64,000 nt of DNA, taken from the NCBI GenBank assembly GCA_944393665.1, contig CALYAX010000005.1, positions 20,611 through 84,610 of the forward strand, in the 5' to 3' direction. How positions within the stretch are numbered: position 1 is the stretch's first letter; each line of letters begins with the position of its first letter. Source of the stretch: an uncultured Alphaproteobacteria bacterium. Its GTDB lineage: Bacteria > Pseudomonadota > Alphaproteobacteria > RF32 > CAG-239. Made by a program: the position numbers and the translations under genes. Positions 39,334-58,840 of this stretch are shown here, piece by piece. The notes under the pieces were generated by a model. It was not told the DNA's origin and searched no databases. It saw nothing but the letters and a program-made list of their open reading frames with translations.

Positions 39334-40809
39334 ATGAAATATCTGATGACAGCCGCCGGTTTTGCAGCGGCATGGAGCCTGGCATTTTCTGCCGCAGCAC
39401 AAATGCTGGCAGAAGAAACTCCGGAAACCTCCGCAAATATTGAGGTCGTGAAATATCAGAGGCTGCCCTCGCTGGCGGATTTGGTGGAAAAACTGCAGCC
39501 GGCAGTGGTTAATATTTCTACCACCCATCAGCCGGGGAACGCCGAAGCCGATGAAAACATTCCGGGAATTGTCAGCGCCAATCCGGCAATCAGCGATTAT
39601 TTCAATCCGCACAACCCGCAGCAGCTGTCTTTGGGATCAGGCTTTATTATTGACAAGGACGGTTTTATTATCACCAACAATCATGTTATTGACGGTGCGG
39701 ACAGCATTGTTGTGACTTTGGCTGACAACAGCCAGTTTGACGCCGAACTGATTGGCCGGGACAGCAAAACAGACATTGCCCTGATTAAAATCAAAGCCGG
39801 AAAAGACCTTCCGACGGTTAAGCTTGGAAACTCGGATAAAATCCGTGTCGGCGACTGGATTGTTGCCATCGGAAATCCGTTTGGCCTCGGCGGGAGCGTT
39901 ACGGCCGGAATTGTTTCGGCAAAATCGCGGGATATTGAAGCCGGACCGTATGACAGCTTTATACAAACCGATGCCTCAATCAACCAGGGCAGTTCCGGCG
40001 GCCCGATGTTTAATATGGCCGGAGAGGTCATCGGTATTAATACCGCGATATTTTCAACCACCGGCGGGAATATGGGAATCGGCTTTGCAGTACCGATTAA
40101 CCTGACAGAGTTTGTCGTTAAGGAATTAAAGAGCAAAGGCAAAGTCGAGCGCGGCTGGATCGGGCTGAAAATACAGCCGAACACTTCGGATATTGCCGAC
40201 AGTCTGGGCCAGGACGAGCCTTACGGGGTGGTCATTTCGGCGGTGGAAGAAAATTCAGCAGCGCAGCAGGCAGGGATTGAAGCCGGCGATATTGTTACTT
40301 CTTTAAACGGCGAAACGATTACCGATGCCAGGGATTTTTCACGGCAAATTGCCGAAACCGCACCTGGAAGTTCTATCGAATTGAGCATTTGGCGCAACCG
40401 GCAGCAGCGTCAGGCCAAACTGCAGGTTATGAAAATGCCGGAAGAAAAAGCCGCTCCGGTTCAAACACCGGCAGCAACGGAAGAAAAGAAAAGCGGAACC
40501 GCCTTTATCACCGAAATCGGGATAGAAGCGGCAGAAATCAGTCCGGACATTATTCAGCGTTATCAGATTCCGGACGGACAGAGCGGTCTGGTTATTACCA
40601 AAGTTGACAGCGGCAGCGACGCCGAAATTAAAGGGCTGCGCGCCGGAAATCTGATTACCCAGATTGACAAGAAGGCCATCTATGACTTAAATGACCTGCG
40701 CACTTATTTAGATGAAGCCAAACAGGAGAATATGCGCCCGGTCCTGCTGCTGGTTTATGATCATGACCTCCCCCATTACGCAGCCGTAAAGTTAAAGAAA
40801 AATGACTAG
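39334..40809 (+). CDS. degP: periplasmic serine endoprotease DegP/HtrA family with two PDZ domains
   Basis: Catalytic triad context (H...D...GSSGGP) with two PDZ-like regions. Confidence 0.9.
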   Translation: MKYLMTAAGFAAAWSLAFSAAAQMLAEETPETSANIEVVKYQRLPSLADLVEKLQPAVVNISTTHQPGNAEADENIPGIVSANPAISDYFNPHNPQQLSLGSGFIIDKDGFIITNNHVIDGADSIVVTLADNSQFDAELIGRDSKTDIALIKIKAGKDLPTVKLGNSDKIRVGDWIVAIGNPFGLGGSVTAGIVSAKSRDIEAGPYDSFIQTDASINQGSSGGPMFNMAGEVIGINTAIFSTTGGNMGIGFAVPINLTEFVVKELKSKGKVERGWIGLKIQPNTSDIADSLGQDEPYGVVISAVEENSAAQQAGIEAGDIVTSLNGETITDARDFSRQIAETAPGSSIELSIWRNRQQRQAKLQVMKMPEEKAAPVQTPAATEEKKSGTAFITEIGIEAAEISPDIIQRYQIPDGQSGLVITKVDSGSDAEIKGLRAGNLITQIDKKAIYDLNDLRTYLDEAKQENMRPVLLLVYDHDLPHYAAVKLKKND

Positions 40810-41257
40810 AACAGACTTTTATCATTTACAGAGCCAGAATTTGGAAACCGTTTTGCCCAAACTGCTTGAAAAGGCTTACAGCACGGGAAAAAGCATTGTT
40901 GTCCGGGTGGGAACGGCAGAACGCGTTGAGTTTTTGAATGCGCTGCTGTGGACTTATAACGACCAGTCTTTTCTGCCGCACGGCTCATCAAAAGACGGCA
41001 ATGCCGAATTGCAGCCAATCTGGCTGACTTCCGGTTCCGACGTTCCCAATCTGGCCAGCCTGCTGTTTTTAGTGGACGGCGCCCGGGCGGACATGACGGA
41101 GCTGGAAAAGTTTGAACGTGTTTTTAATATTTTTGACGGCAATCTCCCGGAGGCCGTTGAACAGGCGCGGACTTTCTGGAAAGACCTGAAAGCTTCCGGA
41201 AACGAGTGCTTTTATTGGCAGCAGGATTCTTCCGGACGCTGGACGCAAAAAGCCTGA
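40802..41257 (+). CDS. holC: DNA polymerase III chi subunit
   Basis: 151 aa with DNA_pol3_chi-like N-terminus (TDFYHL...). Confidence 0.7.
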   Translation: MTRTDFYHLQSQNLETVLPKLLEKAYSTGKSIVVRVGTAERVEFLNALLWTYNDQSFLPHGSSKDGNAELQPIWLTSGSDVPNLASLLFLVDGARADMTELEKFERVFNIFDGNLPEAVEQARTFWKDLKASGNECFYWQQDSSGRWTQKA

Positions 41258-41307
41258 CCGTTTTATCTTAATCATCTCACCCTCCAAACGCACAATTCCG
41301 TTATTTA

Positions 41308-41336
41308 TTGAAAATTAATGTTTTTCATGTTATGAT
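41308..41336 (+). promoter_or_regulatory. sigma70-like promoter for the first cysteine-rich gene: TTGAAA - 17 nt - TATGAT
   Basis: Read directly. It is followed by a (GT)5 tract at 41341..41350 and a CAGGTACCTG palindrome at 41368..41377. Confidence 0.5.
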
Positions 41337-41400
41337 GTTGGTGTGTGTGTAGATCAGGTATCTATAACAGGTACCTGAATAAATTTATAGGTGGTGTGTG

Positions 41401-43764
41401 ATGTCTCAGCAAAAAAATTTTTGGCTGGCGTTAGCTGCATGTATCCTGCTGGGAGCAGGTACGGCAGCAGCCGGCATTTATTGGTTACCCGATTATTTAA
41501 AAGATAACGTAGATAGTAATCACCGGACGGATACCGATAAAGGTGGCGGCGACAATGTGGGCGGTACTTGCGAACAAACGTATGGACAGCTCAGCTCGTG
41601 CCCTTCCCCGAAAGTGATTGATAAAGAATACAACTATGGCAAAATAATGTGCTATAGCTGTAAGTGTCCCTCGTCCTATCAAATAACCTCCTGTTCTTCA
41701 GGCTGGCATGTTGCGGGGGTTCCGTGCAAAGAAGGAACCACCACCTATTATACCGGCTGCGAGGCGGATGCCTGCCCCGGCGGATTTACCGCGGGATTAA
41801 CCTGCGGCGCCGGTTATACCCGTGAAGTTAACGGAAAATCAGGTTCTCTGGATTGTGTCAGGTGCAATATTAAACCCTGTACCAGCGGTTATACGGCCGG
41901 CGTTGCCAATTGCAACAGCAAAACTTATCCTGCCGGATGGACATATGCCTCGTCCGGTTATTCAGGAGACAGTATCTGCGGGAAATGCACGGAAAAAACC
42001 TGCACTTCCGGATTTGAAAAAGGTTTGAACAACTGTTCCGGTAAAGCTCATGCCGAAGGCTGGACTTACAGCTCCTCCGGATATGCCGGAGACAGCGTCT
42101 GCGGCAAATGTACCGCCAAAACCTGTGCCTCAGGGTATCAGGCCGGCGTCAGCAATTGCTCCAGCACTGACAGCTGGACTTACAGCAGCAGCGGTTATGC
42201 AGGGGATTCCGTCTGCGGCCTTTGCACGGCCAAGTCCTGCGCCGACACATTTATTGCCGGTCTGGAAAACTGCAGCAACAAAGCTCATCCCAGCGGCTGG
42301 TCATATGTAAAAAGCCACAACAGCGGCAATACCGTATGCGGGAAATGCGATGTAAAAGCCTGTACCTCCGGTTCCACCAGCTGTGCCAGCGGCTTAATAC
42401 CGTCGGCCAACAGCTACTTTTCAGGCGACCAGCAATGTTATACCTGCCAAACCTGTGAAGAAATCGGCAAAAAAACCTGTAACGGCGGCTGTATTGCCAC
42501 ATCAGAGTGCTGCGGCGGCTGTGGCAGCGGAGAGGTTTGTAAAAACGGCACCTGCGTGGTTCAGACTTGTGAAAGCATTCTGACTGACCGCGGTTACGGT
42601 CTAAATACCAACCTGCCGAATAAAACCAATGTCATTATGAATGATATGACCTTTTCCAGAATGGAAGGCACAACTTACATCGGGATTGATAATTTTACCA
42701 GCATTTCACAATGCAGGGGAAAATCTCGTCCGAAACTGACATTTAATAAAGTCGGCAATCTTGACAATGCCAGCTTTACCAATCTGAATCTGTATATTAA
42801 AGCTTCAGACACCGGTAATATTGAAGTCAGAAACACGCTTACGCTCAAGAACACGGATGCGGACGTCACACCGACGACCATCAACATTCCGTCCGGGGCC
42901 GGCATTTCGATGACTGACTCAAAAATAGTGAAAAACGGCAGTGCCGCCAATACGCTTAATGACCGCGGATATATCTACTTCTACGGTACGTCGGAAGTTG
43001 GAAATGTCAATGTGTATGACTCCGGAAGAGCCGCATTTTATAAAAACGGCAAAGTCAATTCGATTACAACAAACGCCTCTTCTTCAAGTATCAGCGTCAG
43101 CAGCGGGGCCAAGTTGGAATCGACCGGGGCAATTACGATTACTTCCGGATCTTTGACGACAAGCGGAACCAGCAAATCCAACTCTAATATCAGCGGAAAA
43201 ACGTTAAGTGTTACGGGAACCCTGAAAGCTCCTTATACAAATATCAAATTGACCGACAACTTTATCGTCAACAAAAACGGCAGTTTTTCCGCCAACAATG
43301 CCTCGGTTACCGCAGCTTATGGAAAACTTTACAACGGAGCGTCAATTTCTATAGCCAATGCCGTTGATATGACATTCAAAAAGAAATTCTCCTGCGCTGT
43401 TTCTACAATAACGTTAGGAACTTGTGACTCTCTCAGCCCTGAGAATAACAATGATCACGGCATCTTCGCTTATGAATTTGAACTGGGACAGGTTGATGGC
43501 ACGGACAAGACCAGCAACACCCGTATTAATCTCTGCGGTGGTTCGAAGATGAGTTTTGTTACCGATACCAACACGTTAGCCAATTGCAGACTAAACCAGT
43601 ATAATAACGCCTCTATTTGTCTGGAATATTATGCCTGGTTTCAATGCAGCGGAAACGTTTCTCCCAATAATATGATGAACAGGGCTTTCATTGAGGGACA
43701 AACTGATTTTTCATGGTCAAATTGTCGCAAAAAATTCAAAGAAAGAAAAGATAAATGCAAGTAA
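41401..43764 (+). CDS. secreted cysteine-rich modular repeat protein, paralog 1 (787 aa): signal peptide, GIYWLPDYLK N-module, five ~41-aa A-type repeats (C.KC.AK.C..GY.AG..NC......GWTYSSSGYAGDS.CGKC), one 40-aa B-type 8-Cys module (CEEIGKKTCNGGCIATSECCGGCGSGEVCKNGTCVVQTCE), and an Asn/Ser/Thr-rich C-terminal region
   Basis: ORF with SD AGGTGG 6 nt before ATG 41401 and an own promoter and terminator. The repeat structure was read from the translation. Confidence 0.8.
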   Translation: MSQQKNFWLALAACILLGAGTAAAGIYWLPDYLKDNVDSNHRTDTDKGGGDNVGGTCEQTYGQLSSCPSPKVIDKEYNYGKIMCYSCKCPSSYQITSCSSGWHVAGVPCKEGTTTYYTGCEADACPGGFTAGLTCGAGYTREVNGKSGSLDCVRCNIKPCTSGYTAGVANCNSKTYPAGWTYASSGYSGDSICGKCTEKTCTSGFEKGLNNCSGKAHAEGWTYSSSGYAGDSVCGKCTAKTCASGYQAGVSNCSSTDSWTYSSSGYAGDSVCGLCTAKSCADTFIAGLENCSNKAHPSGWSYVKSHNSGNTVCGKCDVKACTSGSTSCASGLIPSANSYFSGDQQCYTCQTCEEIGKKTCNGGCIATSECCGGCGSGEVCKNGTCVVQTCESILTDRGYGLNTNLPNKTNVIMNDMTFSRMEGTTYIGIDNFTSISQCRGKSRPKLTFNKVGNLDNASFTNLNLYIKASDTGNIEVRNTLTLKNTDADVTPTTINIPSGAGISMTDSKIVKNGSAANTLNDRGYIYFYGTSEVGNVNVYDSGRAAFYKNGKVNSITTNASSSSISVSSGAKLESTGAITITSGSLTTSGTSKSNSNISGKTLSVTGTLKAPYTNIKLTDNFIVNKNGSFSANNASVTAAYGKLYNGASISIANAVDMTFKKKFSCAVSTITLGTCDSLSPENNNDHGIFAYEFELGQVDGTDKTSNTRINLCGGSKMSFVTDTNTLANCRLNQYNNASICLEYYAWFQCSGNVSPNNMMNRAFIEGQTDFSWSNCRKKFKERKDKCK

Positions 43765-43784
43765 AATAGCTTAACAGACAAAAC

Positions 43785-43816
43785 CTCCCCGGTGGCCTTT
43801 TCCGGGGAGTTTTTTG
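43785..43816 (+). terminator. Rho-independent terminator of paralog 1 (CTCCCCGG-loop-CCGGGGAG-T6)
   Basis: Read directly. It is duplicated at 46111..46142. Confidence 0.8.
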
Positions 43817-43839
43817 TGTCCAGCCCTCTAAACTATTTA

Positions 43840-43868
43840 TTGACTATCTTTGATTATTGATGTATTCT
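43840..43868 (+). promoter_or_regulatory. sigma70-like promoter for paralog 2: TTGACT - 17 nt - TATTCT
   Basis: Read directly. It is duplicated at 46167..46195. Confidence 0.5.
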
Positions 43869-43906
43869 GGAAGAAGTTCCGGAACAGCAATTATTGGAGA
43901 ACGGTC

Positions 43907-46090
43907 ATGAGAACAGTCTTTTTAGCCCTGGGTTTGCTAATCGCAAGCGCTTTGCCTGCTTACACCGCCTCTCCGCATAACACATACACACACAACACCG
44001 CCTTTGCTGTTTCAGAACAGTCTTACCGACTTGCCGGGATTTATTGGCTTCCGGATTATCTTAAGAATAATATCGATACCAATCGTCGTACAGATGTTGA
44101 CACCGGCGGTGGAGATATTCCGGTAGAATGCAAAAATTACGCGCCGGAATGTACATCGCCTCAAGTTCCCGGAGGTAAAACGGTGCGTATCAGCGATAAA
44201 TTCTGCCCTGTCGAATGCGTGTGTCCTGACAGTTACAAATACACATCGTCCAACTGCTCCGGAGACAAGAAACCTTCCGGCTCGGTTTGTGACGGCAAGT
44301 ATAACGACTGCCGCAGCCTGACTTGCGAAGAACGCGGTCTCAAAACCTGCGGATCCGCCTGTATCGCGGCTTCTGCCTGTTGCACGGATACGGACTGTGG
44401 CAGCGGCAAGAAATGCTCTTCCGGTTCCTGCATCGCCAAAAGTTGCGAGGAAATGGGGCAAAAAACCTGTAACGGAAGCTGTATCGCGGCTTCTGCCTGT
44501 TGCACGGATACGGACTGTGGCAGTGGCAAAAAATGTTCTTCCGGTTCCTGCATCGCCAAAAGTTGCGAGGAAATGGGACAAAAGACCTGTAACGGCAAGT
44601 GCATTGCCAAAACAGCCTGCTGTGTGAGCGGGGACTGTGCCAGCGGCATGAAATGCTTTGACAACATTTGCATTGCCCAAACCTGTGAAGAAAAAGGCTT
44701 AAAAACCTGTAACGGAAGCTGTATCGCGGTTTCTGCCTGTTGCATGGATACGGACTGCGGCAGTGGCAAAAAATGTTCTTCCGGTTCCTGTGTCGCTAAA
44801 AGCTGCGAGGAAATGGGTCAGAAAACCTGTAACAGCAAGTGCATTGCAAAAACTGCCTGCTGCACTGATACGGACTGCGGCAGCGGCAAGAAATGCCAAA
44901 ACGGATCCTGCGTAGATAGCCAGCCAAAATCAAAATGTTATGAAAAGCTTAAAGCTAAAGGTTATCTGGTAGCTGAAAACGGTGCCGAACTTGAAGCGAT
45001 TTTAAATCGCGCAGATACGCTTTCCCTGCCGGTTACTATTTATATTTTGGGAGATACTGTCATTGATAATTTTGAATTTTTCACCACCAATGGTGAAGTT
45101 TTTCCAATTCCGGTTATAAATTTGTACGATGCCTATAAAGCAGAAACAGACGGTTTGTGCTCTTTTAATGACGAAACTAATGACACCCGGATAAAGCTTC
45201 TGATGTCAAAATTAACTGTAAACAATAAATTCACCATGATGGGAATGTTATACAATTTTTTCCTTTCCTCTTTCCACATCAATATCTTTGATATTTTGTC
45301 CGGAGATGTTCATTTTTTTGATGCTGTCGGAAATTACGGCAGTGAGGCAACAATCAATAAACTGACAGAAAACTCCGGCGCTTTGTTTGGATCAACTGTT
45401 TATATTCAAGGTAAAGATGCCATATCCATGATTAATATTGACGAAATTATCAATGGAAACAGTTTAAATTTTAATTTGAATAATATCGCTTCGCTTACTG
45501 CTAATAAATTTATTGCGGAGGACTATGCACAGGCGCAGATTATAGCTGATAACGGTTTAGCAGACATCGGAACAATTACGCTTCCTAAACAAAATATATT
45601 TAATGTGACATTAAGCAACGAATCCCGGATGAGTGTGTCCAACATTACACCTCTAACAAAGACTAATTCAGCTTTTGACGTTATGATCAGAACGGGAAGT
45701 ATGTTTCGAGATGAAAGCGGAGCAGATGGTAAACCAATCGGAAATTATGTTTACCAGCCGGGAGTGACTTTCCATATGGAAATGAGCCGAAACTCCAACA
45801 ACAGCGACACAGGGAAGGCTTACAAGAATTGCATGACAACCTATACCTCTGTTGGCTATGAATCGTTTTGTACGCCAATAGCCGGCACCTATGCAGGAGG
45901 CTCTACTATTCCTGGAAATGCGATTCTTAATACCAGCTATAACACAACAAGCAGCTATTACGGAAATCCTCCGTGCACTTATAAAGATTGGAAACCGGCA
46001 TTTTCTGCAGATTTCAGTAATGTATTTAATACTGGAACGAATTATACGGCTTATTACAACTGTACTGTATACAATTTCTCAGCGTTGTAG
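43907..46090 (+). CDS. secreted cysteine-rich modular repeat protein, paralog 2 (727 aa): signal peptide, SPHNTYTHNTAF segment, GIYWLPDYLK N-module, five tandem 40-aa B-type 8-Cys modules (CEEMGQKTCNGSCIAASACCTDTDCGSGKKCSSGSCIAKS), and an Asn-rich C-terminal region
   Basis: Start chosen at MRTVFLALG (SD GGAGAA 43896..43901) by alignment with paralog 3. The ORF track start 43850 was rejected. Confidence 0.8.
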   Translation: MRTVFLALGLLIASALPAYTASPHNTYTHNTAFAVSEQSYRLAGIYWLPDYLKNNIDTNRRTDVDTGGGDIPVECKNYAPECTSPQVPGGKTVRISDKFCPVECVCPDSYKYTSSNCSGDKKPSGSVCDGKYNDCRSLTCEERGLKTCGSACIAASACCTDTDCGSGKKCSSGSCIAKSCEEMGQKTCNGSCIAASACCTDTDCGSGKKCSSGSCIAKSCEEMGQKTCNGKCIAKTACCVSGDCASGMKCFDNICIAQTCEEKGLKTCNGSCIAVSACCMDTDCGSGKKCSSGSCVAKSCEEMGQKTCNSKCIAKTACCTDTDCGSGKKCQNGSCVDSQPKSKCYEKLKAKGYLVAENGAELEAILNRADTLSLPVTIYILGDTVIDNFEFFTTNGEVFPIPVINLYDAYKAETDGLCSFNDETNDTRIKLLMSKLTVNNKFTMMGMLYNFFLSSFHINIFDILSGDVHFFDAVGNYGSEATINKLTENSGALFGSTVYIQGKDAISMINIDEIINGNSLNFNLNNIASLTANKFIAEDYAQAQIIADNGLADIGTITLPKQNIFNVTLSNESRMSVSNITPLTKTNSAFDVMIRTGSMFRDESGADGKPIGNYVYQPGVTFHMEMSRNSNNSDTGKAYKNCMTTYTSVGYESFCTPIAGTYAGGSTIPGNAILNTSYNTTSSYYGNPPCTYKDWKPAFSADFSNVFNTGTNYTAYYNCTVYNFSAL
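44324..44923 (+). repeat. Five in-frame tandem 120-bp coding repeats; copies 1 and 2 differ at only a few synonymous/near-synonymous sites
   Basis: Unit boundaries at 44324, 44444, 44564, 44684 and 44804, each beginning TGCGAGGAA/TGTGAAGAA (CEE). Confidence 0.9.
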
Positions 46091-46110
46091 AATCCTGTAA
46101 AAACTTCTAT

Positions 46111-46142
46111 CTCCCCGGTGGCCTTATCCGGGGAGTTTTTTT
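46111..46142 (+). terminator. Rho-independent terminator of paralog 2 (duplicate of the 43785 terminator)
   Basis: CTCCCCGG-tggccttat-CCGGGGAG-T7. Confidence 0.8.
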
Positions 46143-46166
46143 GTGTCCAGCCCTCTAAACTATTTA

Positions 46167-46195
46167 TTGACTATCTTTGGTTATTGATATATTCT
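46167..46195 (+). promoter_or_regulatory. sigma70-like promoter for paralog 3: TTGACT - 17 nt - TATTCT
   Basis: Read directly. Confidence 0.5.
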
Positions 46196-46233
46196 GGAAA
46201 TAGTTCCGGAACAGTAATTATTGGAGAATGGTC

Positions 46234-48589
46234 ATGAGAACAGTCTTTTTAGCCCTGGGTTTGTTTATTGCAAGCACTTTGCCTGCTCTTGCCGCCTCTC
46301 CGCATAACACATACACACACAACACCGCCTTTGCTGTTCCGGAACAGTCTTACCAACTCGCAGCAACCTGGTTCCTTCCCGACTGGCAGGCCGGGCTTGT
46401 TTCACGTACCGATACCGCTCCCGCCGGGTCCGGTGATCCTTCCCTTTCCGATTCCGCCTGCCTGACGACTTATAATCTCTTCTCCGCTTGTGTCGCTCCG
46501 CAGACCATCAAAAAGACATATAATTTCGGTAAGCTCACCTGTTATGACTGTGTCTGTCCCTCTTCTTATCAATATACTTCTTCCAACTGTTCAAACGGAT
46601 ATACGCTGGCCGGAGGGTCCTGCAACGGTAAATATCTCCAGTGCGATCCCTCGGCCTGTCCGTCAGGGTACACAGCCGGAAAGACCTGCGCCTCCGGTTA
46701 TGACCGTGAGGTGAACGGCAAATCCGGCTCCCAGGACTGTGCCAGATGCGTGGCCAAGGGCTGCCCCTCAGGCTATTCTGCAGGTTTGTCTAACTGCAAC
46801 GGGCAATCTTATACGGAGGGGTGGACCTATTCTTCCAACGGTTATGCCGGTAATAGTATCTGCGGCAAGTGCACCGCCAAGTCCTGTGCCCCGGGGGTAT
46901 ACTGCCGGGCTGGCCAACTGTAACGGACAGTCCCAGCCGTCGGGATGGACTTACAGTTCTAATGGGTATGCGGGAAACTCGGTCTGCGGGAAATGTACCG
47001 CCAAGTCCTGCCCGGCCGGATACAGCGCCGGGGTCACCCAGTGCAGCAACACCACAAGCTGGACCTATGGTTCCAACGGCTATGCCGGAAACAGTATCTG
47101 CGGCAAATGTACGTCCAAAGACTGTGCTTCGGGCTATACGGCGGGTTTAGCCAACTGTAACGGGAAAGCGCACCCGGCAGGATGGAGTTACACCGCCGGA
47201 ACGCCCAGCGGCAACACGGTTTGCGGCAAGTGCACCGCCAAAAGCTGCACGGCGGGGAGCACCAGCTGCAACAGCTCAACCCAGAACGCGACGGCCAACG
47301 GCTATTATGCAGGGGACAGTGTTTGTTACACCTGCGTCGCCAAGACCTGCGAACAAATGGGGCAGAAAACCTGCAACGGATCCTGTATTGCCACTTCCGA
47401 ATGCTGCGGCGGATGTCCTGCCGGGCACGAATGTAACGATGGAACCTGTATTCAGACAAAATGCGAGGCCGGGTATATTTTTTATTCCGACGGAACGTGT
47501 AATTCGGATTATTTAGCAGATAAGACTCCGGTCGGCATAGTGGCTGACCCTGAACACCGGCTTTTGATAGACTTAAAAGGAATTAATAATATTTCGTTAT
47601 TGGCGACAATAAGCAATATTAATATTCCGATGATAGGCAATGAATACACGCGTCCGATTTCATTTAACGGCTATTCCAATACAACAATTCTGGCAAGATA
47701 TACACCTGCTGCAACCACATGCCTGACCAAAAACCGTGACGGCATCATGAACAACTGGTATATTCCCGGCAGCGGGGAAATCCTTTCCGTTGGTAAAAAT
47801 TATCAGGCTGTTTATGCCGGACTGAATAAGCTGGCCGATTACGGCTTGGCAGACCCTAATCTGGGCTATTTATGGAGTTCCGATGAAGTATACAGCAGCG
47901 ATGAATTGGGACTGGTCATGAATCCGGCTGACCGTCAGTTAACTGCGAGACCGAGAATGGCAATGGCTGCCAATCTCCGCTGTATGGCCCATTATCTTTG
48001 CTCTGCCGCAAGCGGCTGTGAACTCCCCTGCCCGTTTGAATCTTCTGGTGACAGCAGTAACGGCGTGAATGGCTACACCAGGAAAAGTATTTCCTGCGAC
48101 GACGGATGGCTGGTCCAATCTTATCCGTTCAATTCCGCCTGCAAACGCTGTATCAATGATACCGTAGAAGGAAGCAGCAGCGGGGGAAACCAACCCGGCA
48201 AAACCGAATGTCAGGTTCTGGACTCAATGTATTATAGCAACGGTAAATATTTTTGTACTACCGCAGCCTCGGCTAATGGCACCTACATGGGAAAAATAGG
48301 AAAGAAAGGGCTGGTTATTTTGGGACAAATCGGTTCGACAATGTCTGTTTCCGATGCCGAGCAACAATGCAACAACTATACCAGAGGGACTTTCAGCAAC
48401 TGGCGGATTGTCTATACCAGCGACTCTGACAAATGGTCATCTATTATCTGCAATGTTTGCCACCCCTTTGGCAAAAGCGGCTCCCTATCAATGTATTACG
48501 GGGGTTACGGCTGGAATACCGCCACTTCTTATGACCGAAACGGCACTTTGTATTGTACGCATTCGTACAGCAATGTTTATCGGGAATAA
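46234..48589 (+). pseudogene. secreted cysteine-rich modular repeat protein, paralog 3 (~785 aa if read through), interrupted by a +1 frameshift in a C4G5 tract at 46889..46897. Its 5' end matches paralog 2 and its A-repeat/B-module body matches paralog 1, so it is chimeric.
   Basis: ORF 46228..46923 ends CTAKSCAPGVYCRAGQL* while the overlapping frame (46739..48589) continues PRGYTAGLANCNGQSQPSGWTYSSNGYAGNS... Removing one G from GGGGG restores ...SCAPGYTAGLANCNG... Confidence 0.75.
46893..46897 (+). repeat. G5 homopolymer (preceded by C4) at the frameshift point of paralog 3
   Basis: gcc ccggggg tat at 46888..46900. Confidence 0.9.
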
Positions 48590-48600
48590 GCTGTGGTGAG

Positions 48601-48628
48601 AAACGCCCCGGACTTAGCCGGGGCGTTT
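48601..48628. terminator. Bidirectional rho-independent terminator between paralog 3 (+) and the 48630..50261 gene (-)
   Basis: AAACGCCCCGG-acttag-CCGGGGCGTTT. Confidence 0.75.
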
Positions 48629-48629
48629 C

Positions 48630-50261
48630 TTATTTGGCAAGTTTTTCCAAATCGCTGGGAAAGTTGACATCAATAAATTTGTCAGTGTCTTTTTCTTCCA
48701 GCAGGGTCAGATAGTCGGAATGTTCAACGAAAACCGGACGGATATCGGCATTCTCAGGAACGATATCAGCCTGGGGATAAAGCGCCTTGCTCCATAAAAC
48801 CGGATTTTTCTTGACCCCCTGATGGGCAAACATAATCACTTGTTTTTCCGCACCGGGCCGGCAGGCATCAATCAGACGGTTTAAATCGTCAGCTTCAATG
48901 CCGGGCATATCGGCGGGCAGAAGAATCGCCCCGTCGCAAAAACCGGGAACAGAGGAAAGTCCCAATGCAATTGAGGTTTTAATACCTGAACGGTAGGCCG
49001 GATTGTAAATGACATTGATATCCAGATTTTCCAATTCCGCTGCCATTTCATCATCATGATAACCGGTTACCACAAAAACCGGACGGGCATTGGAAGCCAT
49101 CGCGGCCCGCACCGCCCGCATAAACAAAGGCTTTCCGTCTGGAAGCGGAACCATCAGCTTATTACGCCCGCTGCGGCTTCCTACTCCGGCGGCAAGAATC
49201 ACAGCTCCGACTGAAGCGGAAGCACCGCTGCGGGCAGACGGCGCCGGAGAAATCAAACGTGCGGCAGCCTCCGGATCAAGCAGTTGTCCCTGCGGTAATT
49301 CCGGCAAAGGGATACGGGTGAATTCTTCATGATTTAATTTTTCCGTCAACAGGGCTTTTTTGATACACCGGTTGATCAACCCGCTGTCAGCGGCGGCATA
49401 ATGATACGGCAGCACAATGATTTTGGTCTGGCGCTTCTCCGCAATCAGCAAATCTGAAGCACCAAATTGAGGCAAACGGGTCAACGACGGGCTGTCGGCA
49501 ATTTTGGCGATGGCCGTGGGAATAATATCCTGTAAACAAGACGTGCGAAGCGGTGAAAGAACAAAAACAACGTCCAACCGGGCACGGAGAGCCGTTTCAA
49601 GAGTATCGGCCACAGCGTCAACCGTGTACTCCGTATTATATTCCTGTAAAAAATCGAATCCGAATCCCTGAAAGTCTTTGACCAATTTTTTTACCATTGC
49701 CGTAAAGCGCCTGGTTTCGGCGGCAGTATTCTGCTGACGGCCGTAAATCAGCCCGGTACGGTATTGTCCCGGCTTAACAACGCTCAACAGTTCGGTATTA
49801 CCTGACAAACGAAAAACAATATCGTCAACCAGACTACTGCTGACAAAAGGAACAGTGAGTTCCAAAGAAGCAATGATTTCCCCGCTTTTTACAACCGCAA
49901 ATGACTCTATGGTGTTAAGCACCAGCAAATCATTAAAACGATTAAACTTCTGAACCCGGTCGGTAATCGTATAAAAAATGCCGTCTTCCGCAGCAACAAT
50001 TTTACAGACGTTATTATCAATAGCATAGGAAACACCCGCACCGCAAAGACGCGCGACAATCATCCCCAAAGCAGTAGCAGCGCTGAGGTCATCGTCTTCT
50101 ATTCTGGCGCCGAAGACGGTTTTGATGTCGTGCATTTTAAAAATGAGAATATCTTCCGCAGTCAGTTCATGGCCGGCAGGATAAACTTTTGCCCCAAGTT
50201 TGATTTCATTAAATAATCGGACCTGTTTAGCCTGACTGAGCGGAAATTCCTGATATTTCAT
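48630..50261 (-). CDS. two-domain protein: N-terminal ~330 aa (possibly a molybdopterin-binding-like domain) fused to a C-terminal MobA/MocA-like nucleotidyltransferase domain
   Basis: C-terminal AVILAAGVGSRSGRNK matches the MobA-like NTP_transf_3 signature. The N-terminal identity is uncertain. Confidence 0.5.
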   Translation of the reverse strand: MKYQEFPLSQAKQVRLFNEIKLGAKVYPAGHELTAEDILIFKMHDIKTVFGARIEDDDLSAATALGMIVARLCGAGVSYAIDNNVCKIVAAEDGIFYTITDRVQKFNRFNDLLVLNTIESFAVVKSGEIIASLELTVPFVSSSLVDDIVFRLSGNTELLSVVKPGQYRTGLIYGRQQNTAAETRRFTAMVKKLVKDFQGFGFDFLQEYNTEYTVDAVADTLETALRARLDVVFVLSPLRTSCLQDIIPTAIAKIADSPSLTRLPQFGASDLLIAEKRQTKIIVLPYHYAAADSGLINRCIKKALLTEKLNHEEFTRIPLPELPQGQLLDPEAAARLISPAPSARSGASASVGAVILAAGVGSRSGRNKLMVPLPDGKPLFMRAVRAAMASNARPVFVVTGYHDDEMAAELENLDINVIYNPAYRSGIKTSIALGLSSVPGFCDGAILLPADMPGIEADDLNRLIDACRPGAEKQVIMFAHQGVKKNPVLWSKALYPQADIVPENADIRPVFVEHSDYLTLLEEKDTDKFIDVNFPSDLEKLAK

Positions 50262-50343
50262 TCCGGTTACCCCTTTATTTTTGATATAAGGTTATTTTAG
50301 CAAAATGCCACCAAATAAAAAGTTAATTTTTTGCTCTTTAAAC

Positions 50344-50365
50344 AAAAAGGGAGCAAAAGCTCCCC
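50344..50365 (-). terminator. Rho-independent terminator for the small lipoprotein gene (GGGAGC-tttt-GCTCCC followed by a T-run on the minus strand)
   Basis: Read directly. Confidence 0.6.
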
Positions 50366-50366
50366 A

Positions 50367-50540
50367 TTAATCTTTTTTAATGATGTCCCTGGTATCTTTT
50401 ACCGTGCGGTGGACATCATAGGTGACACGTTCCAGTTTCTGGGTGGTGCGTAACGAAGCGTCCAAAACTTCTACCCAGGAACCACAAGAACTGAACAACC
50501 AAGCCAGCCCTATCAACAGAATAACTTTTTTTGTTTTCAT
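50367..50540 (-). CDS. small lipoprotein (57 aa: MKTKKVILLIGLAWLFSSCGSWVEVLDASLRTTQKLERVTYDVHRTVKDTRDIIKKD), absent from the ORF track (below the 60-aa cut-off)
   Basis: Manual translation. Signal peptide plus lipobox-like LFSSC with its own terminator. There is no obvious SD, which lowers confidence. Confidence 0.45.
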   Translation of the reverse strand: MKTKKVILLIGLAWLFSSCGSWVEVLDASLRTTQKLERVTYDVHRTVKDTRDIIKKD

Positions 50541-50708
50541 ATTTTTATTTTGAGATATCTATTTATAAGTAATTGAATTTTGTTTTGTAATCTAACATAG
50601 AAATTATTTCGTTTCAAGCTTTTAGACAAAAGAAAAATAAACTTTACCTGTTGACACGGCAAATAATTTAATTAGAGAGTAAGGTATTATTCCCTTTTAT
50701 GTGAAGAT

Positions 50709-50737
50709 GAAAAATGGGTTGCAATCTCTTGCAACCC
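50709..50737 (-). terminator. Rho-independent terminator of the rplM-rpsI operon
   Basis: GGGTTGCA-atctc-TGCAACCC followed by a T-run on the minus strand, 30 nt after the rpsI stop. Confidence 0.7.
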
Positions 50738-50769
50738 ATTGAAAATATTTGATATTTTTCTGATACCAA

Positions 50770-51270
50770 TTAACGTTTAGAGAACTGATAAGAACGGCGG
50801 GCTTTGGCGCGGCCATATTTCTTACGTTCTACCGTACGGTCATCACGGGTCAGGAAACCTGCTTTTTTCAAAACGGTGCGCAGTTCCGGCTCATATTCGT
50901 TCAGAGCTTTGGAGATACCGTGTTTGATGGCTCCGGCCTGACCGGACAATCCGCCGCCTTTTACCGTGCAGACAACATCAAATTCGTTGACGCGGTTAGA
51001 AATTTCAAACGGCTGATTGATAATCATTTTCAAAACCGGGCGGGCAAAATACTGATCAATCGATTTCTCGTTAATCGTAATATTACCTTTACCGGGTTTA
51101 ATCCAGACGCGGGCAACGGCATCTTTACGTTTTCCGGTGGCATACGAACGGCCGAACTTATCGCGTTTGGGTTTGTTTACAACAGTTTCGCTGTTGGCAG
51201 AAACGGCAGCTTTGGCAACTTTAGCCGAAGCGCTTTTCAGATCTTTCAAAGATTCAATTTTCTCAGCCAT
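50770..51270 (-). CDS. rpsI: 30S ribosomal protein S9
   Basis: Conserved C-terminus ...[10 protein letters not shown] with S9 signatures. Confidence 0.95.
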
Positions 51271-51737
51271 TACAGGGCGCTCCTCTTATTCTTGGGGTTC
51301 TTGGAAGCAATATCCAGAACTTCAGGGTTTTGAGCCGAATGAGGGTGATTCTCACCAGCATAAACTTTCAACTTGGTCATCTGCTGACGGCCCATCGGGT
51401 TGCGGGTAATCATGCGCTCAACAGCTTTCATGATAACGCGCTCCGGAAAACGGCCTTCCAAAATTTTAGCCGGGGTGGTTTCTTTAATTCCGCCGACCCA
51501 GCCGGTATGTTTATAATAAACTTTATCGGTGAGCTTTTTACCGGTCAGTTTAACTTTATCGGCATTGATAACAACAACATAGTCACCACAATCAAGGTTG
51601 GGAACGTAGTTGGGTTTGTGTTTGCCGCGCAGGATCTTGGAGATTTCTGCAGCCAGACGGCCGAGAACAACGCCCTGAGCATCAACAACATACCATTTTC
51701 TCTCAATGTCAGAGGGTTTGGTTGCATAAGTGTTCAT
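51270..51737 (-). CDS. rplM: 50S ribosomal protein L13
   Basis: 155 aa, [20 protein letters not shown]... typical of L13, overlapping rpsI by 1 nt. Confidence 0.95.
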
Positions 51738-51910
51738 ACTTTTCTCTCTTTTAAAAAGATGGTTAATGAATTCGGAAGTGACTATACATGAAATAATCCC
51801 AATGTCAACAACAAAATATCAGTAAATTTCAATCAGTTAATTGACGGTATTATTATACCGTTAGCCAACATATTGATTTTATTTATTTTTCATCAATTTA
51901 ATATAAAACA

Positions 51911-51939
51911 AAAAAAATAATTGATTTTTGTCTAATATC
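51911..51939 (+). promoter_or_regulatory. sigma70-like promoter TTGATT - 17 nt - TATACT for the 51984 gene
   Basis: Read directly. SD GGAGGG at 51972..51977. Confidence 0.5.
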
Positions 51940-51983
51940 TATTTATACTTAATTATATTCTGTTGTTTATCTGGAGGGAAATC

Positions 51984-53828
51984 ATGCCGGAAAATGATAT
52001 TTTTGAGGGAATTGGTTATCAGGATGTAAATGATTATCTGTCATCTGCAGTCAATATCCGTGAATCAAAAGTTTATCAGTTATTCAGCAATCTGCGCGAA
52101 GCCTCGCGCAATGCCGGGACTTTTGAAGAAGCCGAAAAGCTTGCGATTGGACTTAACCGGTTTGCCATGCAGCTTGATCCCAAAAATGAAAAACATCGCA
52201 ACTTTTATAATAATTTGGAAGGGGCTTTTATTGACAATCTTTCCAAAGAATTCAGGGAATGTTCTTTTTATGACAACTGCCCGACAGTTAATAAAATAAA
52301 TTATATCTTACTCTCCGGCTTTTCGACCTATACTAAACTGGCGCAAATATCTTCTTTGAATAAAATTCCGCCGCAATTGCAAGAAAATCTGCTGGCTGCG
52401 CCATACAGCACTTTTGAAAACACGCTCCCGTTTATTTACAATGCGGAATGTAATGATTCCCTGCGAAATAAAATTAATGATACCCTTGTTTACCAATCCA
52501 ATCACTCTGCCAATAACTTACTTGCAAATCTGAAAACTAAATTCCATAACTTTAAGACATTGAAAAAATTAGATGACAGTATTTTCAAGGAAAAGGTTAA
52601 AGAAATTCTGGAAAAAGATGCCTTGTTGTATAAGTTAACGCAGCATAACGGCGTACTCCCCGATACTTTATCCGGGCGCTTCGACTTGTTTTTAAAGACC
52701 GGCGATTTTCAAACGGACAAAACAACCCAAAGACTGGCAAACGAGCTCGCTTTTGCAGACATCCGCGACGGCAAAGCCGAAAAACTCGGGGCCGATAAAA
52801 TAGCCGTCCTGTTGGCAAGCGATGTTCATTTGGGATATTTAACCGAAAAAATCAGCCTTGAAAAGCTTAATCAAGTTTTTAACCATGCCAACAAACACGG
52901 TTTAAATATTGCCCGAACCGTCCGGGATAAATTTTTTAATCAGGAACTGGCTGCCGCAAAGGACTGGAATAAAATTTTGAACATGACCCGGTATAAAGAC
53001 GGCTGCAGCGGTTCCCGTTCATCAGTTAAAGACTATCAAACCCGCTTTGAGATTGCAGCACAGAAAATAACCGAAATAAAAAACAGCCAGGAATATGCCT
53101 TTATGACGGCTGATATTCAAGAATATGAAAAGAGGGCTGCCGGGTTGAAAGAAATATATGAAAACAGCAACCGTTTGTCCGGCTGTATCGGTTATCTGGA
53201 ACGGATTCAGGCACTGAGTGAAAATGTTTTAAAAAATTTCAGCTCACAGAAAGACGCCGGCCTCTCCGGAAAAGATCTGGAGAAAGCTGCCGGCAATGCC
53301 CTCAATAATAACTTTGAGCCGCTGGCGCACACAAACGCCAGGCTCCCTTTTCTGTTTGGCAGGAAAGAAGAAAAAAGACGCCAGCAAGCTTTGAACAACG
53401 CCGTTGATCAGTTTAACAAAATCCTCAAAGAACTTTCCGCCGACAAAAACGCAAACCGGCAGATTAAGAACACACTGTTAAGTTATTCAGGAAAGCTGCT
53501 TGAAAAATCTACCCTGGAAGCACTTAAAAACAGTTTTCAAGAAACACGGCAAGAGATCAACCGGAGAACGGATGACTTAAATTATATTGAGAAAAATTGG
53601 AATATACGCCAGAAAAAAATGACTCTTGAAGAAATCGCCGCTTCAGAAAAGGCGATAAGGCAAAATGCTGATGCTGCCGGTAAAGAAAAAGACCGCCGTT
53701 TGTCGGAAGCAAGAAACAGACTGAAAGAAAAAACCGGCATTGATACAGCGGAAGGCAAGTCTGGCGCCGTGAAAGCGGATAAAATTGCGGCGGAAGTTAT
53801 CCGCGCCAAGAAAAGCAACGGCAAATAG
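51984..53828 (+). CDS. hypothetical Lys/Asn-rich protein (614 aa from MPENDIFEG; ORF track gives 51963), AT-rich gene with no signal peptide
   Basis: Long ORF with its own promoter and terminator. Its composition is clearly lower in GC than its neighbours. Confidence 0.55.
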   Translation: MPENDIFEGIGYQDVNDYLSSAVNIRESKVYQLFSNLREASRNAGTFEEAEKLAIGLNRFAMQLDPKNEKHRNFYNNLEGAFIDNLSKEFRECSFYDNCPTVNKINYILLSGFSTYTKLAQISSLNKIPPQLQENLLAAPYSTFENTLPFIYNAECNDSLRNKINDTLVYQSNHSANNLLANLKTKFHNFKTLKKLDDSIFKEKVKEILEKDALLYKLTQHNGVLPDTLSGRFDLFLKTGDFQTDKTTQRLANELAFADIRDGKAEKLGADKIAVLLASDVHLGYLTEKISLEKLNQVFNHANKHGLNIARTVRDKFFNQELAAAKDWNKILNMTRYKDGCSGSRSSVKDYQTRFEIAAQKITEIKNSQEYAFMTADIQEYEKRAAGLKEIYENSNRLSGCIGYLERIQALSENVLKNFSSQKDAGLSGKDLEKAAGNALNNNFEPLAHTNARLPFLFGRKEEKRRQQALNNAVDQFNKILKELSADKNANRQIKNTLLSYSGKLLEKSTLEALKNSFQETRQEINRRTDDLNYIEKNWNIRQKKMTLEEIAASEKAIRQNADAAGKEKDRRLSEARNRLKEKTGIDTAEGKSGAVKADKIAAEVIRAKKSNGK

Positions 53829-53830
53829 AA

Positions 53831-53862
53831 TTATCCCCGGTTGTAAACCGGGGATAATTTTC
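53831..53862. terminator. Rho-independent terminator (TTATCCCCGGTT-gta-AACCGGGGATAA-TTTT) between the 51984 gene (+) and mutS (-)
   Basis: Read directly. Confidence 0.75.
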
Positions 53863-53898
53863 AATAACTTAACGCCCCTAAGTCATGACACTTTAGGT

Positions 53899-56595
53899 TT
53901 AACCAGCCAGCAAGGTCTTTAACTCATAGAGTTTTTCCAGCGCTTCCTTAGGGCTCAGCTCATCGGGGTTGACGGCTTCCAGCGCTTCGACAGCGGGAGA
54001 ATTGGCATTGGCGGCGGGTTCTTCTTTGGCGCGCAGCGCTGCAAACAGCGGCAGATCATCAGCCAGATCTTCAATCGACCGGCTTTTGCCGTTGTTTTCC
54101 AGCGAATGGAGCACCTGTCCGGCCCGTTTGACAACCGCTTTGGGCAGTCCGGCCAGTTTGGCAACATGTATCCCGTAAGAACGGTCCGCAGCGCCGTCGA
54201 TTACTTCGTGAAGGAAAATCACCTCGTCGTTAAACTCCTTGATTTTCATGCAGTGGAGCGTCATAGACGGCAGTTTGGAGGTCAGCGCGGTCAGTTCATG
54301 GTAATGGGTGGCAAACAATGCGCGGCATTTGTTGACCTCGTGCAGATGTTCAACCACCGCCCAGGCAATTGACAAGCCGTCAAAAGTGGCGGTTCCCCGG
54401 CCGATTTCATCCAAGATGACAAAAGAACGTTCATCAGCACGATTTAAAATTCCCGCCGTTTCCACCATCTCAACCATAAAGGTTGAACGTCCCCGGGCCA
54501 AATCGTCAGAAGCGCCGACACGGGAAAAAATCTTGTCAATCACCCCGATGCGGGCATAAGAACACGGCACAAAAGATCCCATCTGCGCCATAATCGCGAT
54601 GATTGCATTCTGACGCAAAAAAGTGGATTTACCGGCCATATTGGGTCCGGTCAACAGCCAAAGGTGGCCGTTTTCTTCATCAAGACAGCAATTATTGCCG
54701 ACAAAAGTTCCGGCATTGTCCTTGGCAATGGCATTTTCCACCACCGGGTGGCGCCCGTCTTTGATATCAAAAACCAGACTATCATCAATCAGCGGGCGGC
54801 AATAATTATTTTCAACGGCCAAATCAGCCAGCGCCGCGGCCACATCCAGTTCGGCCAAAGCTTTGGCGGTACGCAAAATATCTTCGGAGGCCAGTTTGAC
54901 ATCGCGGACCAGATTATCAAAAATCTCCAGTTCAATAGCCAGGGCTTTATCTGCCGCACCGCGAATTTTGTTTTCCAATTCGGTCAGCTCAACAGTGGTA
55001 AACCGCGAGGCATTCAAAACTGACTGACGGTGAATATATTGCGGATCTTCAAGCAGCTGGGGAGCAAATTTGCTCTGAACCTCAATAAAATACCCGATGA
55101 CATTGTTAAACTTGATTTTAAGATTGGCAATGCCGGCGGCTTCGGAATATTTGGCCTGAAGTTCGACAATCAGCTGGTGGCTGTCGTTTTTAAGGCGTTT
55201 AACCTCATCAAGCGGTGGATAGAATCCGGCCCGGACAAAACCGCCGTCACGGGCCAATAAAGGCAATTCTTCATCCAAAGCCTGTTCCAGGGTTTTGACC
55301 ATTTCATTATGGCGCCCCAGGCGAAGGACAACGGCTTTTACGGCTGCCGGTAACTCTCCGGAGACGGTTTCCTCTCCGTCACGTCCAAAACCCGTCAGCA
55401 GGTTTTTCAACCCCGGCACTAATGCCAGTGCCGTTTTGATATTAGCCAGATCCCGCGGGCCGCCGCGCCCCAATGACAGACGCGACACCGCACGTTCAAT
55501 ATCCGGGCAGGCTTTAAGGGCTGCGCGGAGTTCTGAACGAATCCGGGGATAATTGGCAAAAAACTCCACCTGGTCAAGCCGCTGGTTGATGGCGGCAATA
55601 TCCTTGAGCGGATTAGCGGCGCGCGAGGCCAGCACACGCCCCCCGGCGCCGGTCACGGTACGGTCAATCACGCCGAGAAGGCAGCTGTTTTTATCACCCG
55701 ACAGCGACTCGGTCAGCTCCAGGGAGCGGCGGGTAGCTCCGTCAATTTCCATAATCGACGCCTCGGTTACTTTCACCGGATTAGCCAGCAAGGGAATTTT
55801 GCCTTTCTGGGTGTTTTCAACATAGTCGAGCAAAACCCCGGCAGCGGTGATTTCGGCACGGCTGAAAGATCCGAAGACCTCCAGCGTTTCAACCTTGTAA
55901 ATATCTTCAAGGCGTTTTTTGGCGTTTTCGCTGTTAAAACGGGCCTGGGGCAAGACAGACAACTGGTCGCGGTAATCATTCAAAACATTAAAGATGACCG
56001 GATTTTGCAGATAAAAATCCGAAATTACCAGTTCCACCGGGTTTAACCGTGACAAAACTCCGGCCAGGATCAGGGCCTCGTCCTGTCCCTTGAGGCTTAT
56101 TTCCTGCAAATAAAAATCACCGGTGGAAATATCGAGCCACGACAGGCCGAGCTGGTCATTCACCCGGGCAACAGTCAGCAAAAAGTTGTTTCTCTTGGCT
56201 TCCAGCAATGGCTCTTCGGTCAGGGTTCCTGCGGTTACGAGGCGGATAACCTCGCGCTTGACCACCGATTTGGCACCGCGCTTTTTAGCCTCTTTGGGAT
56301 CTTCTACCTGCTCGCAGATGGCGACCTTATAACCCTGGCGAATCAGCTTGGCCAGATAACTTTCGTAGGCATGGAAAGGAACACCGCACATGGGAATATC
56401 CTGACTGTCAAGCTTGCCGCGTTTGGTGAGGGCAATATCAAGCGCCTTGGAAGCTTTGACGGCATCGTCCATAAACAGTTCGTAAAAATCGCCCATACGG
56501 TAGAACAGCAGATAGTCCTGATGCTGGGCTTTGATGGCAAGATACTGGCTCATCATCGGAGTCAGATTGGCGTGGTTTTCATTCAGTTCAGTCAT
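53899..56595 (-). CDS. mutS: DNA mismatch repair protein MutS
   Basis: 898 aa with N-terminal mismatch-binding F.Y.LF motif region, Walker [10 protein letters not shown] and HTH C-terminus. Confidence 0.95.
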
Positions 56596-56691
56596 TTTAT
56601 TTGCAAATATTTAGTGATTTTAAACTTGTTATAGCATAGTATATTTATAAATTCAGGTCTAGGATTAATTGCAAGATATGGGACAATTAAC

Positions 56692-58122: not shown

Positions 58123-58134
58123 GGAGCTGTCGTT

Positions 58135-58806
58135 ATGAAATTGGAAATAATCGGCACTAATTCGGCTTTTGCCAAAGACGGCCCGACCACTTCGCTGATG
58201 GTCTGGGACAATGACGGCAAAGGAATTCTGCTGGACTGCGGGTATCCGATTTTTCAATATCTCGGCAAACTGGGATATCTGGATAAAATCAAGGCGGTTC
58301 TGCTGTCGCATACCCATCAGGACCATTGCGGCTCGGCGGTAACGCTGGCCGAATACGCCTTTCAGGTTTTGGGACGGCCGCTGATGATTGGCGGGGTTAA
58401 ATGGGATAAACTGCTCAAACTGTGTGACGGAGACGATTATCCTGAAAAGGTCCGCCTGACGGACGGGAGTTTTATAGTGGAGAGCTGGGAAGTTCCTCAC
58501 GCCAAAGGCATGGAATGCCGGGCGCTGCTGGTTAATGACAAAGTTCTGTTCAGCGGTGATACGGCGGTTTCCCTGCTGAACACCCCGCAGGCTGAAAAAG
58601 CCCGCATCATTATTCACGGCGCTCATCTGAAAGGAACGCCCAATTTGGTTGCAGTTTCAAAACTGGGCGATGCTCCGGCGGAAATCCGTACCAAAACCTG
58701 GCTGATTCATTATCTTCCCGCCAATTATGAACAAATGGCCGCCGCGGCGCAAAAATATGGCTTGGCCGGGGTTGTCAGGCCGGGAATGGTCTTTGACGAT
58801 CTTTAG
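58135..58806 (+). CDS. MBL-fold metallo-hydrolase (223 aa)
   Basis: HTHQDHCG metal-binding motif. Confidence 0.7.
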   Translation: MKLEIIGTNSAFAKDGPTTSLMVWDNDGKGILLDCGYPIFQYLGKLGYLDKIKAVLLSHTHQDHCGSAVTLAEYAFQVLGRPLMIGGVKWDKLLKLCDGDDYPEKVRLTDGSFIVESWEVPHAKGMECRALLVNDKVLFSGDTAVSLLNTPQAEKARIIIHGAHLKGTPNLVAVSKLGDAPAEIRTKTWLIHYLPANYEQMAAAAQKYGLAGVVRPGMVFDDL

Positions 58807-58840
58807 CGTTGGCGAGGCCCCGGAAACGGAGCCTTTGTCT

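Follow-up and report, generated by a model that had tools for sequence, protein, structure and literature searches.

Organization of the Paralog 2 Locus

The DNA analyzed here, referred to as the window, is a 64-kb stretch of contig CALYAX010000005.1 (assembly GCA_944393665.1) from an uncultured Alphaproteobacteria bacterium. Our analyses centered on paralog 2, a gene that encodes five tandem modules of 40 residues with eight cysteines each. Paralog 2 is the middle of three tandem paralogs located between holC and a mocA-like gene, in a neighborhood that also contains apbC, hflKC, degP, rpsI, and mutS. Each of the three paralogs comes with a terminator-like hairpin and a promoter-like site of its own. 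The terminator-like element that follows paralog 1 recurs after paralog 2, at ~46112 to 46143, and a promoter-like site identical to that of paralog 2 is present upstream of paralog 3, at 46167 to 46195. The coordinates of the individual features are collected in Table 1.

Table 1. Features of the three-paralog locus, in window coordinates
Feature	Position	Strand	Description
Paralog 1	41401..43764	+	787 aa; A modules and one B module; present in all related strains examined
Terminator-like hairpin and T-run	43785..43815	+	CTCCCCGG-loop-CCGGGGAG-TTTTTT, after paralog 1; start of the duplicated cassette
269-nt cassette	43787..44055	+	Terminator, promoter-like site, leader, and signal-peptide coding sequence; repeated at 46114-46382 with 86% identity
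Promoter-like site TTGACT-17-TATTCT	43840..43868	+	Upstream of paralog 2; consensus match only
Paralog 2 coding sequence	43907..46090	+	727 aa, from the ATG of 'MRTVFLALGLL'; mechanical open reading frame from TTG 43850
Predicted Sec-type signal peptide MRTVFLALGLLIASALPAYTA	43907..43969	+	Read from the sequence; AlphaFold helix at residues 2-15
N-terminal motif GIYWLPDYL, then GGGD	44036..44062	+	Conserved in homologs and in the alignment consensus
Unit 1	44324..44443	+	S-type module CEERGLKTCGSACIAASACCTDTDCGSGKKCSSGSCIAKS
Lag-120 near-identical offset blocks	44359..44597	+	44359-44477 vs 44479-44597, 6 mismatches in 119
Unit 2	44444..44563	+	S-type; exact second copy in contig L007
Lag-240 near-identical blocks	44461..44817	+	44461-44577 vs 44701-44817, 7 mismatches in 117
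Unit 3	44564..44683	+	K-type, '...KCFDNICIAQT'; position-conserved marker module, once per close homolog
Unit 4	44684..44803	+	S-type; nearest in-register relative is unit 2 (88.3%)
Unit 5	44804..44923	+	K/S mosaic: 5' half K-like, middle S-like, 3' end diverged
C-terminal 388-aa head	44924..46087	+	No detectable homolog, family, or confident fold
Paralog 3	46228..48589	+	Interrupted by a +1 frameshift within the C4G5 tract (46889-46897)

The mechanical open reading frame (ORF) of paralog 2 begins upstream of the ATG listed in Table 1. The true start is almost certainly this ATG, because gene calls in other assemblies give exactly the 727-aa product. From its predicted signal peptide and its cysteine content we infer that the protein is secreted and disulfide-bonded and that the repeat region would be exposed. 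The array is followed by the C-terminal head. A homology search with the head over 5.8 billion clusters returned zero matches, residues 340 to 727 matched no Pfam family at E values up to 10, and in the full-length AlphaFold model this region has predicted local distance difference test (pLDDT) values below 50.

A Mosaic Array of Five In-Frame 120-bp Units

Tandem Repeats Finder was run on the whole window, and self-identity was computed lag by lag across the array. One strong array was found in the window, at 44359 to 44896, with a period of 120, 4.5 copies, 73% matches, and a score of 575; an alternative reading of the same array, with a period of 240, scored higher (731). At lags of 120, 240, 360, and 480 the self-identity was 67 to 75%, compared to a mean of 25% (standard deviation 4%, maximum 38%) at the other lags. 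The array is thus real and far beyond chance. An earlier note on this DNA had divided it into five in-frame 120-bp units starting at 44324, 44444, 44564, 44684, and 44804, and we find all five to be in frame 0 of the ORF, with 40 aa encoded by each. All five units have the cysteine pattern C-x7-C-x3-C-x5-CC-x4-C-x5-C-x4-C. The eight cysteines are kept in every unit (40 across the array), and the reading frame is intact. Two antisense ORFs on the minus strand, at 44012 to 44680 (222 aa) and 44233 to 44769 (178 aa), were rejected as genes, with no separate search made for them, because the conserved cysteine pattern and all homologs belong to the sense frame; their length probably stems from the repeated sense codons, which are poor in stops.

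The earlier note had also described units 1 and 2 as almost identical. Compared in register, they are not: 19 of 120 nt differ (84.2% identity), as do 5 amino acids. The description does hold for the last 85 nt, which contain three differences, all of them synonymous; the other 16 fall within the first 35 nt. The longest exact runs common to the two units are 45 and 41 nt. The closest in-register pair is instead units 2 and 4 (88.3%). Most unit pairs are 59 to 78% identical, and units 3 and 5 are, in line with the note, the most diverged, with 59 to 72% identity to the others.

The identity forms a mosaic, in which near-identical blocks straddle the unit boundaries and differ internally at synonymous sites only. 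The paired blocks of 119 nt (six mismatches) and 117 nt (seven mismatches) provide sufficient nucleotide identity for misaligned recombination. The lag-240 blocks constitute a higher-order, two-unit repeat that links units 2 and 3 to units 4 and 5. The patchwork of S-type and K-type sequence, combined with the stronger two-unit periodicity, points to out-of-register recombination or gene conversion; a single clean duplication would not give it. The recent duplication or concerted evolution proposed in the note is therefore supported by the boundary-crossing blocks, by the synonymous-only differences, and by similar arrays in homologs (see below). The modest identity of most unit pairs would also suit a static architecture, in which old duplications are maintained under purifying selection, the number of units is fixed, and similarity reflects constraint. 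Constraint on the protein, however, cannot explain blocks of 85 to 119 nt that cross module boundaries and carry synonymous differences only, and we consider a static array unlikely.

Unit Number of Paralog 2 in Other Assemblies

An identical 727-aa, five-unit gene is present in GCA_964316525.1 (L005/L015), with 1 mismatch in 5832 nt and none in the array. Another contig of that assembly, L064, has 102 mismatches in 13763 nt relative to window positions 46499 to 60262, and this divergence of 0.75% indicates that the assembly is independent of that of the window. Compared to the single mismatch in the 5832 nt at 40802 to 46633, it also represents a sharp shift in divergence, which points to either inter-strain recombination at the locus or a chimeric bin. 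Identical five-unit arrays in two independent assemblies are what a static architecture would predict. The same is true of the protein collection, where an exact look-up of six plausible full-length variants found none of them.

Two short-read contigs also enter the array from the 5' side. L008 is identical to the window up to its end inside unit 3. L007, the flanks of which are 99.9% identical to the window, contains unit 1, unit 2, an exact second unit 2, and a K-type unit, after which the contig ends. Over the 3.8 kb up to 44599, 2 mismatches and 1 gap separate L007 from the window, with 1 further mismatch in the K-type unit. The extra exact unit 2 would be the expected product of unequal exchange within the 41-nt stretch that the unit 1/2 and unit 2/3 junctions have in common. 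It can be argued that L007 represents a real allele, because it requires a junction sequence that the five-unit allele does not contain. We regard a genuine +1-unit allele in L007 as reasonably probable, and copy-number variation of paralog 2 itself as likely. A fixed number of units would not accommodate this extra exact unit.

Weighing against a real allele, the last 77 nt of L007 (10667 to 10743) are identical to positions 355 to 431 of L072 (ERZ24773224 NODE_48190), and the two contigs thus meet at an assembly-graph junction. Positions 1 to 360 of L072 are a paralogous array from the same sample as L007, which starts with two perfectly identical 120-nt copies and ends at the contig edge.

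Breaks in the short-read contigs recur within the array or close to it. L008 stops at 44663 and L007 where unit 3 ends; L006, L009, L010, and L011 stop either ahead of the paralog 2 start or shortly past it. This behavior, and the start of L072 inside perfect 120-nt copies, would be compatible with near-identical units, or a unit number, generated by collapse or expansion of repeats during assembly. Nevertheless, the array is found base for base in the second assembly (L005/L015), and L008 agrees with it as far as it reaches. Moreover, the units are resolvable, as their longest exact stretches are 45 and 41 nt, and the frame and all cysteines are intact. An assembly artefact is accordingly highly improbable.

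A Dispersed Gene Family in Gut Alphaproteobacteria

The closest named relatives are proteins of gut metagenome-assembled genomes, one of them labeled "Alphaproteobacteria bacterium." The identical 727-aa protein was not returned by the first homology search, the result of a clustering artefact: it is filed in a 90% cluster with a 32-aa fragment as its representative, and a further 32-aa entry in that cluster carries the name 'DNA-3-methyladenine glycosylase I'. A search of the GTDB species genomes revealed one distant locus only, in Proteobacteria bacterium CAG:495, and an exact DNA pattern from the 5' flank had no match in the JGI metagenomes. A protein-based scan of metagenome contigs identified 42 distant loci with 30 to 59% identity, mostly in the N-terminal region. 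Many of these are from the human gut, often with several per contig, and they are too distant for allele comparison. The close homologs are found in unrelated genomic neighborhoods, indicating a dispersed multigene family.

Members of the family have a signal-peptide-like N terminus, an invariant motif, several kinds of cysteine-rich modules, and very different C-terminal domains. The motif takes the form GIYWLPDYL or ATWFLPDWQ, with GGGD ~20 residues on, and follows the pattern (G/A)(I/T)(Y/W)W(L/F)LPD(Y/W). In many homologs it is located directly after the signal peptide, and it may be an anchoring or sorting signal. The heads vary from one member to the next, and a subset is Lcl_C-like; P0021 reaches 35.1 bits, just above the Pfam cut-off of 34.9 bits. 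By BLASTP the paralog 3 head is similar to that of P0021, and the C terminus of paralog 3 also resembles those of P0006, P0010, and P0001.

The number of contiguous modules ranges from 1 to 7 per family member, with a fixed spacing of 40 residues (43 in one subgroup), and equivalent 120/240-bp arrays recur in the DNA of the homologous genes, with as many as 91% matches. Across the family, including distant homologs, the first module and the K-type one hold their position, which favors a static architecture; what changes is how many S-type modules lie between them and behind them. Close homologs, however, can be one unit apart: L074 (P0005) and L002 (P0003) are collinear, with 91 to 96% nucleotide identity, and differ by exactly one 120-bp unit. 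The frame-preserving change in copy number that the earlier note had predicted, by RecA-dependent recombination or slippage, is therefore supported at the level of the family (1 to 7 modules, with P0003 and P0005 one unit apart). In paralog 2 itself the case is tentative, with the unit 1-unit 2-unit 2-unit 3 order of L007 on one side and two assemblies with five units on the other, and the two routes are not told apart by the data.

A literature search on cysteine-rich proteins of RF32 or the Alphaproteobacteria produced nothing relevant to the family. Both the module and the gene family appear to be undescribed.

Predicted Structure and Classification of the Module

Scans of the three paralogs, a two-module fragment, and the C-terminal regions against Pfam and NCBIfam yielded nothing usable. 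AlphaFold models a single module with a pLDDT of 88 as two short hairpins and a helical turn. In the full-length model, array residues 140 to 340 have pLDDT values of 76 to 81 and show the two-hairpin unit five times. Each module is predicted by these models to consist of two β-hairpins of the disulfide type. A Foldseek search with the module revealed no significant structural neighbor (1oig, E = 7.3); its C-terminal hairpin superposes on DPY and knottin hairpins with ~1 Å over 19 to 21 residues.

In a phmmer search of the PDB with the array, two consecutive modules aligned to the LDLa pair of LRP1 (2fyj) with an E value of 6.7e-5, a match that is composition-biased. The matching cysteine spacing and 40-residue period of this alignment, together with the finding that repeat number alters binding strength in Lcl (PMC6460258), would be consistent with a ligand-binding, host-mimicking, receptor-like (LDLa-like) repeat, in which copy number tunes avidity rather than length. 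We consider this quite unlikely. LDL-receptor class A (PF00057, Ldl_recept_a) was rejected as the identity of the module: Pfam gave no match to it even at E = 10, there are eight rather than six cysteines, and the acidic calcium-binding cluster (D-x-S-D-E) is replaced in the module by G-S-G-K-K. Furthermore, a profile built from 62 B modules no longer recovered LDLa in the PDB, and the Foldseek search brought up no significant match.

The 62-module profile instead gave weak, composition-biased PDB matches to the Dumpy DPY module (1oig; E = 0.014) and to neurophysin (E = 0.12). Searched against 1.84 billion representative proteins, the module profile found 220 at E ≤ 0.001, and its more distant matches bear DUF7107, Dickkopf_N, DPY, or STIG1 domains. 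Dumpy DPY (PF21164), Dickkopf_N, DUF7107, and STIG1 were rejected in turn, as neither paralog 2 nor the two-module fragment gave a match at the curated cut-offs. The module resembles these domains and LDLa in its size class (~20 to 50 aa), in its dense cysteines, and in the hairpin of its second half, C-x4-DC-x5-C-x4-C; the present eight-cysteine pattern with its CC pair is distinct from all of them. Given the weak PDB matches, the lack of significance in Foldseek, and the blank Pfam and NCBIfam scans, we treat the module as unclassified.

Beyond the family, the proteins found with the module profile contain a looser bacterial repeat, G-x-K-x-C-N-G-x-C-I-P-x3-CC-x3-DC-x2-G-x2-C-x2-G-x-C, which likewise has no Pfam family. 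This looser cysteine repeat, with a length of 34 to 38 aa, forms long arrays in unrelated secreted proteins (P0101, P0106, P0108, P0111, and P0121).

A Proposed Recombining Spacer Array and Its Known Counterparts

Taken as a whole, the reading we regard as probable is that paralog 2 contains a disulfide-rich spacer array, the units of which recombine out of register, in a member of a dispersed multigene family. In such a protein the array would be the central region of a secreted modular polypeptide, with five modules placed head to tail between the conserved N-terminal part and the unique C-terminal domain. By analogy with the collagen-like repeats of Legionella Lcl, the modules may form a stiff, protease-resistant, rod-like spacer that holds a variable head off the cell or off an anchor. 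The units would exchange sequence by out-of-register homologous recombination or gene conversion, leaving offset near-identical blocks, and whole 120-bp units would occasionally be gained or lost, with the frame kept, by misaligned recombination or replication slippage. The locus varies between strains in addition through loss of whole genes, swaps of the C-terminal domain, and a homopolymer frameshift.

Several observations weigh against this reading. The turnover of units is not fast, since two independent assemblies share the five-unit gene. The sole length variant of paralog 2, L007, is a short-read contig of 3.8x coverage that ends inside the array and comes from a sample that also holds other paralogous arrays, and the look-up of full-length variants described above was negative. 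Surface exposure is argued from the signal-peptide-like N terminus and the cysteine content, and the picture of a head on a stalk is drawn by analogy, because the C-terminal domain is uninterpretable.

The closest functional analog is the collagen-like adhesin Lcl (lpg2644) of Legionella pneumophila, in which the number of repeats varies from strain to strain, with an effect on function (PMC6460258; PMC2639597; PMC11162425), and in which the collagen-like repeat region has a spacer-type role (PMC6460258; PMC11162425). The two proteins share a layout of N-terminal signal sequence, central tandem repeats, and C-terminal domain, and some relatives of paralog 2 have an Lcl_C-type head (that of P0021 passes the Pfam threshold, and the paralog 3 head is similar). 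In contrast to the Gly-X-Y collagen triplets of Lcl, the repeats of paralog 2 are 40-aa eight-cysteine modules without GXY periodicity, and its head is not Lcl_C (PF07603) and has no detectable relative. Paralog 2 is therefore not a member of the Lcl family.

Paralog 2 also shares features with the variable-number intragenic tandem repeats of bacterial surface proteins, for which a review (PMC3899988) and a survey in Legionella (PMC2639597) are available. The likeness lies in the long in-frame units, the high nucleotide identity between some of the units, and a probable gain or loss of units that keeps the frame. The difference is that strain-level length variation of paralog 2 is represented by one low-coverage contig, with the same number of units in two strains.

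Length-changing, in-frame repeat arrays are already a well-known bacterial means of varying exposed proteins, and as a phenomenon the paralog 2 array is an ordinary intragenic repeat array. What is new is the 40-residue eight-cysteine module, which falls outside Pfam and NCBIfam; the many-copy family of predicted secreted proteins, some of them bearing Lcl-type heads, from uncultured gut Alphaproteobacteria; and a locus that differs between near-identical strains in gene content, C-terminal domain, reading frame, and probably unit number. Should the family prove to be exposed on the surface, it would be a prime candidate for strain-to-strain differences in how this gut lineage, for which there is no cultured model, interacts with the host or with phage.

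Strain Haplotypes and Other Layers of Variation

Strains with at least 98.5% identity in the flanks do not all have the same gene content at the locus, and paralog 2 is wholly absent from some of them. Three haplotypes can be distinguished. All three paralogs are present in the window and in GCA_964316525.1; of paralog 2, L063 covers the 3' end, whereas L007 and L008 cover the 5' end. Paralog 1 is followed directly by paralog 3 in L062 and in L016, the latter with a different C-terminal domain (P0017), and L019 has paralog 1 only. The two copies of the 269-nt cassette bracket paralog 2, and the two-gene haplotypes join across them. The cassette is thus a likely recombination substrate for paralog loss.

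Paralog 3 varies in two further ways. Its CCCCGGGGG tract has G5 in the window and in GCA_964316525.1 (L064). With G4, as in L062 and L063, the gene is intact and encodes 784 aa. The tract of L016 reads GCCTCGGGG. Either homopolymer phase variation or a strain-specific pseudogene could account for these differences. Additionally, the paralog 3 allele of GCA_019416605.1 (L016 3564-5852, P0017) shares its N-terminal 1.3 kb with that of the window at 94.7% identity, and its 3' end of ~1.2 kb is unrelated; the two alleles thus differ by replacement of the C-terminal domain.

Protists have large multigene families of secreted proteins that are rich in cysteine, repeat periodically, and contain variable regions, as in the variant-specific surface proteins (VSPs) of Giardia and the surface antigens of ciliates. 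The present family is like these by general description only, and the CXXC motif typical of VSPs is absent from it. As a tentative possibility, the array may belong to a surface-variation system of uncultured gut Alphaproteobacteria that is built in several layers and resembles the protist VSPs in function. The layers of this system would be the gain and loss of stalk modules; the swap of unrelated heads, some of them Lcl_C lectin-like; the deletion and insertion of tandem paralogs by way of the terminator-promoter-leader cassette; and C4G4/G5 on/off switching. A signal peptide and the N-terminal (I/T)(Y/W)W(L/F)LPD(Y/W) motif would provide the shared frame. Such a system would serve evasion of the host or of phage, or would change adhesion specificity.

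Finally, a second tandem coding repeat, with units of ~114 to 124 nt, is present in paralog 1 (41887 to 42260) and paralog 3 (46771 to 47247). It encodes the 'A' modules, GWTYSSxGYAGDSxCGKCTAKxCxxGYxAG, and the frameshift of paralog 3 is located inside one of its units.

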